This document shows, in pieces, positions 14,028 through 19,041 of a stretch of 64,000 nucleotides of DNA. Source of the DNA: an uncultured Gammaproteobacteria bacterium. Its GTDB lineage: Bacteria; Patescibacteriota; Microgenomatia; UBA12405; JAHJSD01. Position numbers and translations under genes: made by a program. A model generated the notes under the pieces. The model saw only the letters and a program-made list of their open reading frames with translations. It made no database searches and was not told where the DNA came from. How positions within the stretch are numbered: position 1 is the first letter of the stretch; each line of letters starts with the position of its first letter. The stretch spans positions 130,278 to 194,277 of the forward strand of contig CAZCGQ010000002.1 in the NCBI GenBank assembly GCA_964498425.1, written 5' to 3'.

Positions 14028-14564
14028 ATGATCAGAAAGGCAAAACTAGCTGATGCTCAGGCAATCAGCCAGCTAATAACCAAAAACCTAAAATCGCAAA
14101 AGGAAGATAAGTCCACTGGTTTTTTGAGGTACAAACGAAGTCCGAAAAAAGTCAAAAAAATTATCAAAAAATCAATTATCACTCTTGTTTATACCAAGAA
14201 TAAAAAAATTATTGGCTTAATGAACGCTCACCCGCCAATCAAATACAAAAATAAAACCTATAACTGGGAATCTAAGCTACTAGAAAAAACCTATTTTGAT
14301 AATCAAAAATCAGCTGTTATTTACCTCGGTGCAATCGACCCCGAATACCTCCACCAAGGGATCGGCAGTCAACTCTATCAAGAGATGGTCAGCAACCTAA
14401 TCCGCCAGGGATACAAATATCTATTTGCCTCAATTAGTTTAAAACCGATAAAAAATAAGGCCTCTTGGGGGTTTGTTAAATCCAAAGGATTTGAAACAGC
14501 AGCAATTATCACCCCAACAAAAAATCCCGATAAAGAAACCGCCCTATTCGTTAAAAAATTGTGA
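14028..14564 (+). CDS. Putative GNAT-family N-acetyltransferase
   Basis: 178 aa with a motif-A-like segment (IYLGAIDPEYLHQGIGSQLYQEMV). Confidence 0.4.
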   Translation: MIRKAKLADAQAISQLITKNLKSQKEDKSTGFLRYKRSPKKVKKIIKKSIITLVYTKNKKIIGLMNAHPPIKYKNKTYNWESKLLEKTYFDNQKSAVIYLGAIDPEYLHQGIGSQLYQEMVSNLIRQGYKYLFASISLKPIKNKASWGFVKSKGFETAAIITPTKNPDKETALFVKKL

Positions 14565-14571
14565 AAGAAAA

Positions 14572-14631
14572 CATTGCTTACTATCTGTAGCTTTAGCGAA
14601 ATATTGCTTGCTATCTGTAGCTTTAGCGAAA
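14572..14631. repeat. Tandem duplication of a 30-bp unit (2 copies, 2 mismatches) at the 3-prime flank of tRNA-Tyr
   Basis: CATTGCTTACTATCTGTAGCTTTAGCGAAA followed by TATTGCTTGCTATCTGTAGCTTTAGCGAAA, seen directly. Confidence 0.8.
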
Positions 14632-14636
14632 GATAG

Positions 14637-14718
14637 TCCAGGGGGTAGGATTCGAACCTACGTAGGGAAACCCGACGGTTTTACAGACCGTTCCATTTGG
14701 CCACTCTGGCACCCCTGG
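14637..14718 (-). tRNA. tRNA-Tyr (anticodon GTA), class II with a long variable arm and an unusual C1:G72 first pair
   Basis: Reverse complement CCAGGGG-TG-CCAGAGTGGCCAAATGGA-ACGGT/CTGTAAA/ACCGT-CGGGTTTCCCTAC-GTAGG/TTCGAAT/CCTAC-CCCCTGG-A. It aligns almost position-for-position with E. coli tRNA-Tyr, but the acceptor stem begins C1:G72. CCA is not encoded. Confidence 0.8.
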
Positions 14719-14878
14719 TTGAAACCAAATCTGACTTGGTAGGTGTTATTCTATAATGCTCAGCTGCTAATTGCAAAATAAAACTACGTTATCTTTAAAA
14801 ACTATAATTGACGCTTTAGGTCTAGGTAATTCAGAAGTTGTCACTTTTATCCTCGTACGACGGGAAATAACTACTGCA

Positions 14879-15547
14879 TTATAAGACTAGATAATTTTCG
14901 ATATTTAAATAAAATTCTGTTAAAAACCGACAAATATTATCATTTTCTTTTAGTTTACAAATAATTCGATTAATCTCTTCATAATCCTTTGAGCCCAGTG
15001 AAGTTAAGAAAATTTTTCTAGACTCAGTCGAGGGAGGAACAGACAAATGTTCAAGCAAGATTTGGTACCACTGCGTAACCACATCCTTATTAATATTCAA
15101 CCATTCGTCATTACTATCCCAAGCTTCTCGAAAATATCGAATATAATCCGGTCTGTTTTCAATCCAATTATAAACCAATTCATCTTCCAAGTACTTTAAA
15201 CAGCTATTAACAATTTTTATCTTCTTATTGGAGTGGAAAATTAACGGCAAATCTACCCCCAATGATAATTTAATTTCTTTAAATAGAAATTCTTGGTTTT
15301 CTTTAAAGTAATTAACCCGAACTAGGTCAATTAAACTATGAAAATAAACACCCGCCTGAAAATCAGGTTGGGCTCTTGCCTCTTTCAAATCTACCTTTCT
15401 AAGATGAGTTAAAAACCTATCCAAATTAGCTAAGTAACGAATATCGGGGAAGTTATTACCTAAAAAGAACTTATGCTTATTTTTGGCCGCGAAGTAACGG
15501 GGATAACACCTCTCTGCCACCATAACGTGGGTTATCTCTGCCGCCAT
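14879..15547 (-). CDS. Hypothetical protein (222 aa)
   Basis: ORF only. No motif recognised. Confidence 0.4.
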   Translation of the reverse strand: MAAEITHVMVAERCYPRYFAAKNKHKFFLGNNFPDIRYLANLDRFLTHLRKVDLKEARAQPDFQAGVYFHSLIDLVRVNYFKENQEFLFKEIKLSLGVDLPLIFHSNKKIKIVNSCLKYLEDELVYNWIENRPDYIRYFREAWDSNDEWLNINKDVVTQWYQILLEHLSVPPSTESRKIFLTSLGSKDYEEINRIICKLKENDNICRFLTEFYLNIENYLVL

Positions 15548-15610
15548 TGATAATTATAACAAATAAATTTTGTGGTTTAAATGGAGTAGGGGAGTGCTGA
15601 AAAAAAGATC

Positions 15611-15639
15611 TTGACAGTTTCACGGCAAAAGTTTAAAAT
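15611..15639 (+). promoter_or_regulatory. Sigma-70-like promoter TTGACA-17 bp-TAAAAT
   Basis: TTGACA at 15611-15616, a 17-nt spacer, then TAAAAT at 15634-15639. This predicts a TSS near 15646. Confidence 0.5.
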
Positions 15640-15646
15640 AAGTTAA

Positions 15647-15990
15647 CATTTTAATAAAGGCAGTGACGAGTGGTGAAGTAGAGAAGAAAACGGTAACTAG
15701 AGAGTAAGCGGTTGGTGAAAGCTTACCAAGTTTTCAAATCGAATTACCCACTTCGAGCCGAAAGGTTAAAAGCCTTTCCGGGAGTGCCCGTAACAGCACA
15801 AACGTGTGTCACATTTAGTTCCGCAATTGCGGAACAGGAACGGAGCACGTAATAAAGAGTCTTTATTGCAACCGTTCTCCGAGTGACATCGGAGATTTTT
15901 TTGTGCTAGCAATAAGGAGAAACAAGGTGGTACAGCGAGTTAAACCCTCGCCCTTGATCGAGTTAAACTCGACCGGGGCGAGGGTTTTTA
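15647..15990 (+). promoter_or_regulatory. T-box-like riboswitch leader (~345 nt) preceding the hypothetical-protein + tyrS operon
   Basis: A T-box-like sequence AAGGUGGUACAGCGAG lies at 15924-15939. Its UGGU bulge is complementary to the A73-CCA end of the local tRNA-Tyr. A possible antiterminator (GCGAG..CTCGC) is mutually exclusive with the downstream terminator. AGAGA and GGUGAAAGC stem-I-like elements are present. A candidate UAC (Tyr) specifier lies at 15745-15747. Confidence 0.4.
15945..15989 (+). terminator. Intrinsic terminator/attenuator hairpin 2 nt upstream of the start codon; it also sequesters the RBS
   Basis: CCCTCGCCC (15945-15953) pairs with GGGCGAGGG (15976-15984), followed by TTTTT. 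The RBS GAGGG (15980-15984) lies inside the 3-prime arm, 8 nt from ATG 15992. Confidence 0.6.
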
Positions 15991-15991
15991 T

Positions 15992-17332
15992 ATGAGGGAA
16001 ATTATGAAAAATAGAATACCACCAGGACCAGATGGAACAAAAAGGTTAAATCTTTTTGGAACAACAATCAACGTTGATAAGTTACCACACCAACCGGAAC
16101 CATCCTCCCCGGTAGGGAAATTAATGTCGGAACTTGAGGGCCATCAAGAAGATCTAATTTCAATATTATTTAACACTGAGCCAAGTGAACAAGAAAAAGT
16201 CCAAGCAGTAAAAACTAAAACAAATCAAATAATTAGACCCTTTCAGCAACCAGACCCAAGTAATCCCTTTGGTTCAATCTGGGGAGAAATAACTGCACAA
16301 ATAGCGGCAAATCGTCTTAACTGGTCAAGGAAAAAAATTCAAACTCACTTGTCCAGGGCTGAGCCAAGTCCGGCAAAAACCGAACAAGGTTTAGCATCAG
16401 CGTTACTAATTCAAAAAATCAATGAAAGGTTAACAGGTCGGGGAAAAGAACTTGCCCAAAGAGAACGGCTTGAAAGAAAACTAAACGCCTGGGTAGATTG
16501 GGCCAGACAGTTCGGCTGTAATCAGGAACAAGCTCAAAAAGTAACTTTATGTACTGCCAAACTTCAACTGCTTCAACCGGAAGGAGGCAAAATAATAAAT
16601 CTTAAAAGGTTAGTCGAATTATTATCTAATGGAATTCAAGGACAAACAGTTAATTTAATTCGATTGCAATGTCTTCCAACAATAAATTCCAAAAAAGGCA
16701 CCCAAGTTTCCGACAAAATGCTGACTAAAGCCCCATTACCAAGTGCAGGATTTGTGACAGTCGACCAACGGGAAGAAATAAAACCAATAAAAACAATTTC
16801 TGAGACATTAAGTCAGTTTGAAATAAATCATTCCCTAACCTTTCTGATAGTTGATATCGACTGCTTCATCCTTGATGATAGAAGCTTAGTAGAAAAAGCC
16901 GAAAAATTTGAAACAAGACTAGATAATCTGTTAAAAAGTCACTTCGCTAATGTAAACGTAACTAGATTAAGCAAAACCGCAGGTTTAGATAGTCCGAGAG
17001 AAGTCCTAACCTCATCAACAGTTTCAGAAATCATTAACAATCCTTTTCAATTATTATCACCCCTAGAGTTAGAAAGACGAACCGAAAAAATGAGAGAAAA
17101 ACTTTCTTGCATGGCAGTTCCTAGTGAAACTAAGACCTTTTCTTCCGCTCAAGAATTAACAATAAGGGAGTTTGCTATCGACTTCTGGATTGGCGAAAAA
17201 TTTGGAGGGAAAAAAGAAGCAATTTTTATCAGAAGAACTAAATCTCTTCAGGCAGCTAGTGAAACCTTTCTTCGCGGGGCTAAACAACAATCACCTCCAT
17301 TTATTGCTTTTTGGACAAATAGATTTGCATGA
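15992..17332 (+). CDS. Hypothetical protein (446 aa), first gene of the tyrS operon
   Basis: Long ORF with coding-like composition and no recognisable motifs. Its stop is 20 nt from the tyrS start. Confidence 0.5.
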   Translation: MREIMKNRIPPGPDGTKRLNLFGTTINVDKLPHQPEPSSPVGKLMSELEGHQEDLISILFNTEPSEQEKVQAVKTKTNQIIRPFQQPDPSNPFGSIWGEITAQIAANRLNWSRKKIQTHLSRAEPSPAKTEQGLASALLIQKINERLTGRGKELAQRERLERKLNAWVDWARQFGCNQEQAQKVTLCTAKLQLLQPEGGKIINLKRLVELLSNGIQGQTVNLIRLQCLPTINSKKGTQVSDKMLTKAPLPSAGFVTVDQREEIKPIKTISETLSQFEINHSLTFLIVDIDCFILDDRSLVEKAEKFETRLDNLLKSHFANVNVTRLSKTAGLDSPREVLTSSTVSEIINNPFQLLSPLELERRTEKMREKLSCMAVPSETKTFSSAQELTIREFAIDFWIGEKFGGKKEAIFIRRTKSLQAASETFLRGAKQQSPPFIAFWTNRFA

Positions 17333-17351
17333 AAGGGTTCGAAAAGATAAA

Positions 17352-18503
17352 ATGAAGAAGATGGATATCGATCAGATAATTAATTTAATTACCAGAAATT
17401 GTGAGGAGGTAATGACCAAAGATGACCTCCAAAAACTAATTAAATCCGAAACTAAATTAAATCACTACATTGGCTTTGAGATATCCGGCATGGTTCATCT
17501 CGGAACCGGCTTAATGTCAATGGGAAAAATTGCTGACTTTTTGCAAGCGGGAATTAAATGTACTATTTTATTAGCTGATTTTCACTCCTACCTTAATAAC
17601 AAGCTTGGCGGGAACTGGGAAAACATTCGAAAGGCAACCAATGCCTATTTCAAAGAAGGCTTAATTGCCTCTCTTAAATGTTTTGATATTGACGTCGATC
17701 AAATAATCTCTACTGAACAATTACAATTTGTCATGGGAAAAAACTTATACGAAAACAACCTTATCCACTGGGAAACCTTTATGGAAGTTGGCAAACATCT
17801 CACCCTGGCTAGAAACCTCCGATCAATTTCGATTATGGGAAAAAAAGAAGGAGAAAGTGTTGATATGGCAACCCTATTTTATCCCCCCCTGCAAGTAGCC
17901 GATATTTTTACTCTTCAAGCTAATCTTGTTCATGCCGGCATCGATCAACGCAAGGCACACGCTAATGCCCGAGATGTCGCCGACAAAATTACCATCAACC
18001 CTTTAAAAAACGACCAAGGGGAAATCATTTCTCCCGTCGCTGTTCACCACAATACCATTGCTGGATTAGAAGGACCGAAGACAAAAAAAGAAACGGGCGA
18101 AGAGCTGAAAATGAGCAAATCCAAACCGAAATCAGCGATTTTTATTCACGATACCCCGGAGGAAATAAATGAAAAAATTAAATCTGCTTACTGCCCACCG
18201 CAAGAAATTGCCTATAATCCAATCATCAACTGGGTAGAAACCCTAATTTTCTGGGGAGCGGATAGAGTAGAGGAGGGGTTAAAAATTAACCGAGAAGAAA
18301 AGCACGGAGGCAAAATAGAATACCAGGAAATTGATCGGTTAAAGCAAGACTATCAATCCGGTAAATTACACCCACTAGATTTAAAAAATGCTGTAGCCAG
18401 CTGGTTAATTAATAAACTTAAACCGGCAAGAATTCACTTCCAGAAAGGAAAAGCGAAAGAGGGATTGGAGTTAATGAAGGATTTAGTAAACAGTAATAAG
18501 TAA
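17352..18503 (+). CDS. tyrS: Tyrosyl-tRNA synthetase, archaeal/eukaryotic type (class Ic)
   Basis: YIGFEISGMVHLGTGL...ILLADFHSYLN, KMSKS, and C-terminal ELHPLDLKNAVASWLINKLKPAR align closely with M. jannaschii TyrRS (YIGFEPSGKIHLGH...ILLADLHAYLN; ELHPMDLKNAVAEELIKILEPIR). Start at ATG 17352 (MKKMDIDQI). Confidence 0.85.
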   Translation: MKKMDIDQIINLITRNCEEVMTKDDLQKLIKSETKLNHYIGFEISGMVHLGTGLMSMGKIADFLQAGIKCTILLADFHSYLNNKLGGNWENIRKATNAYFKEGLIASLKCFDIDVDQIISTEQLQFVMGKNLYENNLIHWETFMEVGKHLTLARNLRSISIMGKKEGESVDMATLFYPPLQVADIFTLQANLVHAGIDQRKAHANARDVADKITINPLKNDQGEIISPVAVHHNTIAGLEGPKTKKETGEELKMSKSKPKSAIFIHDTPEEINEKIKSAYCPPQEIAYNPIINWVETLIFWGADRVEEGLKINREEKHGGKIEYQEIDRLKQDYQSGKLHPLDLKNAVASWLINKLKPARIHFQKGKAKEGLELMKDLVNSNK

Positions 18504-18524
18504 TTAGTAACTAGGGAAAATACA

Positions 18525-18863
18525 ATGTTAAAAAATATAAAATCAAAGGTTCAAAATTTATCCAAAAAGTTCCTTTACGGTGGGATAATCCTCCTAATTT
18601 GGGAAATAATTTTAATTTTGCAAGGTACTCATTGGACAAATTACTTTCTCCTAATTTCCGGGGCTATTGTTGGTTCATTAATTATGGAAATTGATTGGTT
18701 TTTCCCGAGCCAAGAAATTCGCCGAATTTTACCAGTTATTCTCCTTCCCTTGACAATATTTATTCTTACTTCAACTAGTGGAACTTTAGGGAAATCGATT
18801 ATTGTTTTTGTTAACTTTATTTTAATTATTGATCAACTTAATAAAGATGAAAGTCAAAATTAA
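18525..18863 (+). CDS. Hypothetical small membrane protein (112 aa, ~3 TM)
   Basis: ORF with hydrophobic segments. Confidence 0.4.
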   Translation: MLKNIKSKVQNLSKKFLYGGIILLIWEIILILQGTHWTNYFLLISGAIVGSLIMEIDWFFPSQEIRRILPVILLPLTIFILTSTSGTLGKSIIVFVNFILIIDQLNKDESQN

Positions 18864-19041
18864 TGAGGAAAAATGTATTGGCTGTGGGCTATGCCCAGCC
18901 TTGGCCCCAGAAGTTTTCACTATGAAATACGACCAGGGTAAAGCTGTTGTTGAAAATCAACCTTCAGAATTAACCGATGAAGTTCAATCTGCCGCCGACA
19001 GCTGTCCAGTCAAGGCAATAGAAATTAGCCAAAATGAATAA
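18847..19041 (+). CDS. Ferredoxin (single 4Fe-4S cluster, ~64 aa)
   Basis: Carries CIGCGLCP ... DSCPVKAI, a classic mono-cluster ferredoxin. Start at ATG 18847 (MKVKINEEK). Confidence 0.7.
   Translation: MKVKINEEKCIGCGLCPALAPEVFTMKYDQGKAVVENQPSELTDEVQSAADSCPVKAIEISQNE

Follow-up and report, generated by a model that had tools for sequence, protein, structure and literature searches.

We analysed a 64,000-nucleotide stretch of contig CAZCGQ010000002.1 (assembly GCA_964498425.1), referred to here as the window, and in it an operon that begins with a gene for a 446-aa protein and continues with tyrS, which encodes an archaeal/eukaryotic-type tyrosyl-tRNA synthetase (TyrRS). The operon is preceded by a predicted sigma-70-type promoter and a leader of ~344 nt (predicted start near 15646 to 15989), and a tRNA-Tyr gene lies on the opposite strand, 0.9 kb upstream of the leader promoter (Table 1). 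No open reading frame (ORF) of at least 50 aa was found on either strand between 15548 and 15991. With a probability that we put at about 0.9, the leader is a T-box riboswitch of class I that attenuates transcription and is specific for tRNA-Tyr, because it matches the T-box covariance model, related loci carry a leader with a UAC specifier, and its helices show compensatory base changes. The assignment is based on sequence and structure match, conservation, covariation, a matching tRNA and energetics; binding of the tRNA, sensing of its charging and the direction of regulation would follow the established T-box mechanism.

Table 1. Features of the tyrS leader and its surroundings; positions are those of the window, except in the last two rows, which use the numbering of each related locus (L numbers).
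Feature	Position	Strand	Basis or remarks
Sigma-70-type promoter, TTGACA-17-TAAAAT	15611-15639	+	TTGACA 15611-15616, TAAAAT 15634-15639; transcript start near 15646 predicted
Stem I	15660-15758	+	RF00230 alignment, covariation
Specifier codon UAC (Tyr)	15745-15747	+	canonical GAA-N-NNN position, RF00230 alignment
Stem II, GAAAGG/CCUUUC, loop UUAAAAG	15760-15778	+	100% paired, 4/6 pairs changed on both sides
Stem IIA, CGGG/CCCG, and IIA/B pseudoknot, F-box-like CCCGUAAC	15779-15799	+	100% paired
Clade-specific linker insertion	15800-15853	+	49-nt insertion relative to RF00230; varies among leaders
Stem III with 5' purine string AAAGAG (15854-15859)	15854-15918	+	script-based helix search, motif per PMC7583486
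Apical stem III hairpin UCUCCGA-GUGACA-UCGGAGA with U7	15876-15902	+	-10.5 kcal/mol, 7 bp, 4 G-C pairs
Antiterminator	15924-15955	+	RF00230 alignment, covariation; -7.3 (canonical) to -10.2 kcal/mol
Intrinsic terminator	15945-15989	+	-33.9 kcal/mol for the segment (ViennaRNA)
First gene under predicted control, 446 aa	15992-17332	+	rare family; alternative in-frame start 16004
tyrS, archaeal/eukaryotic-type TyrRS	17352-18503	+	start 17352 or 17361; 19-28 nt past previous stop
tRNA-Tyr (GUA), candidate cognate ligand gene	14636-14718	-	A73, C1:G72, long variable arm, CCA not encoded
Leader-adjacent tRNA-Tyr genes in relatives	L002 521-593; L019 1836-1920; L040 1503-1587; L068 and L076 2847-2919		
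Leader-adjacent tRNA-Tyr genes in relatives	L075 2064-2136; L077 1665-1737; L083 1537-1610; L087 9964-10048 (-)		

The tyrS leader and its match to the T-box family

A sequence-only reading had earlier proposed a T-box-like leader at this locus, and its structural claims were borne out. It had named a TTGACA-17-TAAAAT promoter, which is present at that place and matches at 11 of 12 positions; a non-coding leader of ~345 nt; a GC-rich hairpin with a U5 run just before the ATG, recovered as CCCUCGCCC (15945-15953) paired with GGGCGAGGG (15976-15984), with U5 at 15985-15989 and the ATG at 15992; a T-box sequence on the 5' side of that hairpin, recovered as AAGGUGGUACAGCG (15924-15937); an AGAGA element (15699-15703), a distal-loop element (GGUUGGUGAAA, 15710-15720) and a UAC specifier, all at RF00230 consensus positions; and a nearby tRNA-Tyr with discriminator A, which is the GUA tRNA-Tyr of Table 1. 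Two further claims, competition between antiterminator and terminator and an archaeal-type TyrRS, held as well. Of the checks that it had proposed, folding showed the leader to be more stable than its shuffles (z = -6.1), with a terminator far stronger than the antiterminator, and comparison with other loci recovered the leader repeatedly, with covariation in stem I, stem II, the pseudoknot and the antiterminator. The third check, a search with the Rfam T-box model RF00230, gave a divided answer, falling below the gathering threshold with a low E-value and a complete alignment.

In that search, window positions 15654-15958 (+) aligned to the whole of RF00230 (model positions 1-219) at 86.2 bits, with E = 2.5e-19 in a search of the region and 2.6e-17 in a search of the whole window. 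At the curated gathering threshold, which for RF00230 is 93 bits, Rfam reported three tRNAs in the window and no T-box; the T-box surfaced with E-value reporting, under which no second T-box was found in the 64 kb. The alignment puts the kink-turn (K-turn), the S-turn/specifier loop, the AG bulge, the distal loop, stem II, IIA/B, stem III and the T-box at their consensus positions, and alignment and direct reading together recovered the full set of canonical T-box motifs in the correct order.

Stem I is closed by GC/GC (15660-15661 with 15757-15758), followed by the K-turn, a GA motif formed by AGUGAC (15662-15667) and CGA (15754-15756), and continues through the helices GAGU/ACUU, GA/UC, GAAAAC/GUUUUC and GUAAGC/GCUUAC. 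Its specifier loop consists of GGUGAAGUA (15672-15680) on the 5' side and GAAUUACCC (15741-15749) on the 3' side, so that the stem has both the K-turn and the S-turn loop (GGUGAAGUA / GAA-U-UAC-C) expected of a T-box. The AG bulge and the distal loop match the consensus, the latter near-perfectly; they are nearly invariant among the five full-length leaders available and, by analogy, would form the platform for the tRNA elbow. In the IIA/B pseudoknot, GUG (15784-15786) pairs with CAC (15797-15799). A hairpin within the linker insertion (GUUCCGCAAUUGCGGAAC, 15818-15835) is missing in L003.

The discriminator motif has been described as 5'-RRRxG-stem III-AA-3', helix A1, a 7-nt bulge beginning UGGN, and helix A2 (PMC7583486). 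Each part has its counterpart in the leader: the string AAAGAG, a 10-bp basal stem III helix formed by UCUUUAUUGC (15860-15869) and GCAAUAAGGA (15909-15918) that encloses the apical hairpin, the linker GAAAC, and AAGG-UGGUACA-GCGAG. In the antiterminator, A1 pairs AAGG (15924-15927) with CCUU (15952-15955) and A2 pairs GCGAG (15935-15939) with CUCGC (15947-15951), leaving the bulge UGGUACA (15928-15934), of which UGGU is complementary to the tRNA 3' end ACCA. The 5' arm of the terminator, CCCUCGCCC, overlaps the 3' strands of both A1 (CCUU) and A2 (CUCGC), and the two structures thus compete for the same residues. The terminator also contains an inner UCGAG/CUCGA helix, and the difference between the terminator segment (-33.9 kcal/mol) and the antiterminator (-7.3 to -10.2 kcal/mol) is the usual default-off arrangement. 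A simple terminator scan did not list the main terminator, whose loop is longer than the scan permits, and the ViennaRNA fold was used for it.

The tRNA encoded nearby fits the leader at both ends: its GUA anticodon is complementary to UAC, and its discriminator A to the fourth base of the bulge, the second U of UGGU. Position 73 is A in all 16 tRNA-Tyr genes of the related loci. The amino acid of the specifier is also that of a downstream gene, since tyrS follows 1.36 kb downstream in the same operon. In the tRNA-Tyr of the window, C1:G72, an identity pair of archaeal type, occurs together with a long variable arm of bacterial type, a combination known for the candidate phyla radiation (CPR; PMC5370408).

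The promoter was the top site within 14500-19000, a region that is not enriched for promoter-like sites (15 observed versus 10.7 expected). TTGACA is invariant at the equivalent position in L002 and L003, and a TTGACA-type promoter is also found in L019 and L087; for a predicted promoter, this conservation among leaders is better evidence than the scan match itself.

Conservation and covariation in related loci

The leader was found before homologous operons at 14 other loci, comprising L002, L003 and 12 identified with nhmmer and a custom covariance model. Both contigs that encode the close relatives of the 446-aa protein (L002 and L003) carry it with UAC in place, and align to the full RF00230 model at 83.4 and 70 bits, respectively. 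The 12 further cases are 11 of 80 reference loci and one metagenome contig, in which the leader lies on the same strand as tyrS and 0.4-2.5 kb upstream of it. In all 13 loci at which the specifier region was read, UAC is retained at this position. Run against 84 sources, a custom discriminator covariance model yielded no leaders beyond the nhmmer set. Two pattern searches were discarded: a metagenome scan for GTGGTGAAGTAG-N50-80-GAATTACCC gave 14 loci, of which L087 is a true leader and the other 13 are chance matches, and a regular expression for T-box cores gave false positives in L022 (within coding sequence) and at several GGGTGG[ACG]AC matches.

Covariation was assessed separately for the two halves of the leader. 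Over 33 pairs of the 5' domain (stem I helices, stem II, stem IIA and the IIA/B pseudoknot), 97.6% of cells were paired and 15 pairs had changed on both sides, a level reached by 0 of 500 shuffles, while sliding the partners by one to three columns reduced pairing to 31-50%; these values come from five full-length leaders that are related to one another and were computed on a structure derived from the window sequence, which inflates the support that they give. In the same five leaders stem I helices 1-5 are 90-100% paired with 8 of 20 pairs changed on both sides, for example GAAAAC/GUUUUC to GGGGA/UCCCC. Double-sided changes also affect one of the four stem IIA pairs and two of the three pseudoknot pairs, which read AUG/CAU or GCG/CGC in other leaders. 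For the antiterminator, the 14 leaders gave 97.6% pairing and double-sided changes in 4 of 9 pairs, and at most 1 in 500 shuffles reached any of five measures. Terminator pairing in the same leaders was 89.8%, and a terminator hairpin followed by a run of U5-U8 is present in nearly all of them.

The basal stem III helix recurs with 8-10 bp and a sequence that varies from lineage to lineage, with an RRRxG-like string on one side and an A-rich linker on the other; a script found it in 8 leaders, its picks being unreliable in the other 6. A GC hairpin followed by U6-U8 occupies the equivalent place within stem III in 12 of the 15 leaders, with differing stem sequences.

Stem I itself varies. In nine relatives (L077, L080, L083, L052, L075, L076, L068, L060 and L048) it is a short specifier hairpin, GGAGG-AAAUAAUACAC-CCUCU, and L040 is intermediate. 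These short leaders have neither AG bulge nor distal loop, yet they end in a hairpin and U-run terminator; transcriptional T-boxes generally need a long stem I (PMC7583486). In L077 (leader at 1412-1663), which scores 45 bits against RF00230, 8 nt take the place of 74 model positions. Leaders with a long stem I have C as the base after the specifier, and the relatives with a short one have A.

Several observations weigh against the T-box assignment, in addition to the inflation of the 5' covariation noted above. The score against RF00230 is below the curated cut-off, the sole T-box hallmark on which the leader falls short, because of the 49-nt insertion after the pseudoknot and an insertion of ~40 nt in stem III, although the elements are all present. 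The nucleotide after UAC is a C instead of the conserved purine. Terminator covariation beyond that of shuffles was absent in the 14 leaders, in which this helix is too conserved to show any. The stem III hairpin and its U7 run could end transcripts before the discriminator is made. Finally, the leader is missing from L005 and L006, the nearest tyrS relatives (78% TyrRS identity) for which the upstream sequence is long enough; since only 11 of the 80 reference loci were positive as well, the distribution of the leader in the clade is patchy, and the leader itself is dispensable there.

Proposed mechanism and alternative readings

By analogy with characterised T-boxes, transcription would start ~7 nt past the TAAAAT -10 box and stem I would fold first, capturing tRNA-Tyr through UAC-GUA pairing and through stacking of the AG bulge and distal loop, its distal platform, against the elbow of the tRNA, with stem II and the IIA/B pseudoknot assisting. 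As the discriminator (stem III, A1 and A2) emerged, the bulge UGGU would pair with the free A73-C-C-A end of uncharged tRNA-Tyr and stabilise the weak antiterminator; CCCUCGCCC would then be kept from the terminator and the polymerase would read into the 446-aa gene and tyrS. Charged tRNA-Tyr would leave the antiterminator unstabilised, allowing the terminator (~-34 kcal/mol, U5) to form and transcription to stop at ~15989.

The apical stem III hairpin allows a different account. Together with its U7 run it resembles an intrinsic terminator or a pause site, and it is one of only two terminator-like sites that the simple scan found on either strand of 14500-19000. If it were a real, regulated early terminator, the leader would be an attenuator with two checkpoints and two successive termination decisions. 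The GC-rich 7-bp stem and the retention of hairpin and U-run in most leaders despite different stem sequences speak for such a role; we nevertheless regard it as unlikely, though the most serious of the alternatives, as no signal-responsive alternative structure that would prevent the hairpin was identified, the combination of GC hairpin and U-run is missing from L076, L068 and L060, and an apical position in a stem III flanked by a purine string suits a structural or pausing role. Within the T-box assignment, the hairpin and U7 would most likely be a programmed pause that gives the tRNA time to dock.

The second alternative concerns the level at which the leader acts. The sequence-only reading had the terminator hairpin burying the ribosome-binding site, and the GAGGG Shine-Dalgarno (SD) sequence of the ATG at 15992 does lie within the 3' arm of the hairpin (15980-15984), 7 nt before that codon. 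On a translational or dual-level reading, comparable to the actinobacterial ileS T-boxes, 15945-15984 would mainly sequester this SD. The first ATG may indeed be the real start of the 446-aa gene, because the two differences in the MREIM codons between the window and L002 on one side and L003 on the other (AGG to AGA, ATT to ATA) are both synonymous, which is compatible with this reading. However, the homologous operons nearest to that of the window, L003 and L002, do not preserve the burial: the start codon of L003 is ~30 nt away from the U-run on its 3' side and a tRNA gene intervenes in L002, neither having an SD in its hairpin, so that among these three loci the geometry is confined to the window. 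In addition, a second in-frame ATG, at 16004, is preceded by a GAGGGA of its own (15994-15999). Occlusion of the ribosome-binding site by the terminator would therefore be at most incidental. Translational (class II) T-boxes combine a sequestered SD with the lack of a U-run terminator, a combination that this leader does not have, and the U5-U8 run that nearly all leaders have after the hairpin is characteristic of intrinsic terminators. We consider a mainly translational switch improbable.

It is far less probable still that the leader is a decayed T-box remnant that has lost its regulation. The score under the Rfam cut-off, the large insertions, the C after the specifier and the leaderless nearest tyrS relatives would all suit such a remnant, but the functional motifs are intact without exception, helix pairing has been maintained by compensatory changes, and the leader core is ~85-90% identical by eye against 41-45% for the encoded protein. 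That the specifier is read in a shifted frame, as UUA (Leu) or ACC (Thr) for another tRNA, is scarcely credible: GAAUUACCC has no purine after the codon and so no landmark that fixes the frame, but the covariance-model alignment assigns UAC to the codon position of the consensus, in relatives with a short stem I an A comes after UAC, the operon contains the TyrRS gene and, in relatives, that of tRNA-Tyr as well, and the UGGU bulge suits A73 of tRNA-Tyr. The idea that the region is the 3' untranslated region of the upstream gene was ruled out by orientation; it is a divergent intergenic region, because the upstream ORF (14879-15547) is on the minus strand, starts at 15547 and is transcribed away from the leader. 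This ORF encodes 222 aa without a family match, and the tRNA-Tyr gene comes after it on that strand; just upstream of the ORF, the site TTTAAA-17-TATAAT, which has an extended TG (15553-15581, minus strand), resembles a divergent promoter.

The operon, its relatives and comparison with known systems

The first gene of the operon belongs to a rare family. Its 446-aa product had no sequence match in Pfam, NCBIfam or the PDB, even when a 22-member profile was used, and only two close relatives among 5.8 billion proteins; a profile search of 1.84 billion representatives brought the family to 24 members. AlphaFold2 run with three sequences gave an unusable model (predicted local distance difference test, pLDDT, 56), which was superseded by a run with a 22-sequence alignment (pLDDT 89.7, predicted template-modelling score 0.81). 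Foldseek matched the latter weakly to families of the aminoacyl-tRNA synthetase (aaRS), cyclodipeptide-synthase and PvcA type (E ~2e-3 and above, template-modelling scores 0.3-0.46), and there was no sequence or profile similarity to TyrRS (hhalign probability to the TyrRS family 0.5%). By its predicted fold, the protein is class-Ic-aaRS-, cyclodipeptide-synthase- or PvcA-like, and would be under tyrosine control. Its residues C227, Q132, Q259 and D288/D290 are invariant.

The archaeal type of the TyrRS is apparent from NF006330 (371 bits), from a score under the cut-off of the bacterial model TIGR00234, and from its best PDB relatives, which are archaeal (2cyc, 2cya, 2cyb, 1j1u) and eukaryotic TyrRS. 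In the public gene call, tyrS begins at L001 2621 (equivalent to window 17412), behind a strong GAGGAGG. The family models and a conserved N-terminal helix, IINLITRNCEEV, reach upstream of 17412, however, which makes 17352 or 17361 the probable true start.

The named relatives of this TyrRS are from Candidatus Shapirobacteria or the Patescibacteria group, and the 80 reference loci collected with a TyrRS profile are nearly all from metagenome-assembled genomes (MAGs) of Shapirobacteria/Microgenomates type. Several of these loci (L004-L007, L031) are syntenic with the window in the pair of genes that follows tyrS. The TyrRS relatives and this synteny are the basis for assigning the window to an uncultured Shapirobacteria-like bacterium of the CPR, from a little-studied lineage. 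Dozens of MAG records, L004-L007, L010 and L011 among them, bear the title 'uncultured Gammaproteobacteria bacterium' and encode a TyrRS 58-82% identical to those of the window and of named Shapirobacteria. These titles look like placeholder mislabels from bulk submission.

In 9 of the 15 leaders a tRNA-Tyr gene starts at most ~11 nt past the terminator U-run, ahead of the protein genes, and in two more within 0.4 kb. In these relatives the ligand tRNA-Tyr appears to be co-transcribed with its own sensor and controlled by it, and therefore to be part of its regulon; a literature search of limited coverage found no report of a T-box upstream of tRNA genes. The leader-linked tRNA-Tyr genes have G1:C72 in L019, L087 and one copy of L040 (L040a), and A1:U72 in L075, and L040 also has a C1:G72 copy; tRNA-Tyr lengths are ~73-75 nt (without variable arm) or 83-85 nt. 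Besides tRNA-Tyr, the putative regulon of the relatives includes an M20 peptidase, an Asp/Glu-type racemase, a metallo-beta-lactamase-fold hydrolase and a YbaK-type editing domain. The last of these (YbaK/ProX-type, PF04073) is fused to the N-terminus of an archaeal-type TyrRS in L019 (2984-4615), L060 (3545-5101), L075 (3497-5059) and L080 (3518-5089), and is a separate gene inside the T-box operon in L040 (2629-3150).

If the assignment is correct, it extends the range of T-boxes to a radiation for which we found no published example, and curated Rfam thresholds miss real CPR T-boxes (86 bits here and 45-83 in relatives, against a cut-off of 93); riboswitch censuses of CPR lineages are therefore likely to be undercounts. 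A bacterial tRNA-sensing RNA would control an archaeal-type synthetase that was acquired horizontally, the identity pair of its tRNA having been switched. That the sensor survives such a swap of synthetase and tRNA identity would fit a T-box that reads nothing of the tRNA but its anticodon, elbow and NCCA end. The clade-specific features, if functional, would make the leader a T-box variant of its own. We offer more tentatively, and with the balance of odds against it, the wider proposal that Shapirobacteria-type leaders form a distinct T-box sub-lineage, with an obligatory checkpoint of stem III hairpin and U-tract, some members that are transcriptional without the stem I elbow platform, and a regulon including tRNA-Tyr and, in the 446-aa protein, a hitherto unrecognised class-Ic-aaRS/cyclodipeptide-synthase-like enzyme acting on tyrosine or Tyr-tRNA; if true, a bacterial RNA sensor has been rewired around an archaeal-derived tRNA-Tyr/TyrRS pair. 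The inclusion of tRNA-Tyr in the regulon, the pairing of a short stem I with a terminator, the stem III hairpin with its U-run and the aaRS-fold protein are starting points for work on T-box mechanism and on CPR tyrosine metabolism.

Recent deep phylogenies place the CPR near the Chloroflexi. Such a placement, if true, would fit the proposal that T-boxes arose in an ancestor of the Firmicutes, Actinobacteria, Chloroflexi and Deinococcus-Thermus (TBDB preprint). The sequence-only reading had called T-box control of an archaeal-type synthetase outside Firmicutes and Actinobacteria notable. Occurrence beyond these two phyla is no novelty as such, as T-boxes are on record from both and also from Chloroflexi, Deinococcus-Thermus and a few Proteobacteria (PMC2494555; TBDB preprint), but a literature search, again of limited coverage, found none in CPR/Patescibacteria and none on an archaeal-type synthetase.

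Three known systems bear comparison with the window. An archaeal-type TyrRS with a C1-G72 tRNA-Tyr, with or without a variable arm, has been described in CPR Microgenomates including Shapirobacteria (Mukai et al. 2017, PMC5370408). The synthetase type and the tRNA-Tyr identity features of the window are the same; that paper mentions no T-box or riboswitch, whereas here the synthetase operon is predicted to be under T-box control. With the actinobacterial ileS translational T-boxes (Sherwood et al. 2015 in PMC7583486) the leader shares the discriminator core, stem II and the pseudoknot. Those T-boxes have an ultrashort or intermediate stem I, and the relatives of the window have a comparably shortened one; the window itself differs in its full-length stem I and in having a U-run terminator in place of an SD sequestrator, and its short-stem-I relatives differ in ending in hairpin and U-run terminators. 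The closest parallel in regulated gene is the founding class I example, the Bacillus subtilis tyrS T-box, from which the window differs in its CPR (Shapirobacteria-like) host, the archaeal-type synthetase and the C1:G72 tRNA, in the C after the specifier, the 49-nt linker insertion and the apical stem III GC hairpin with U7, and in having a predicted aaRS-fold protein of 446 aa before tyrS and a score just below the Rfam cut-off. The two share the order of elements from K-turn to T-box, the UGGU bulge, the mutually exclusive antiterminator and terminator, the specificity (UAC, Tyr) and the kind of gene regulated (tyrS), and the features that define RF00230 place the leader with class I T-boxes such as that of B. 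subtilis tyrS.

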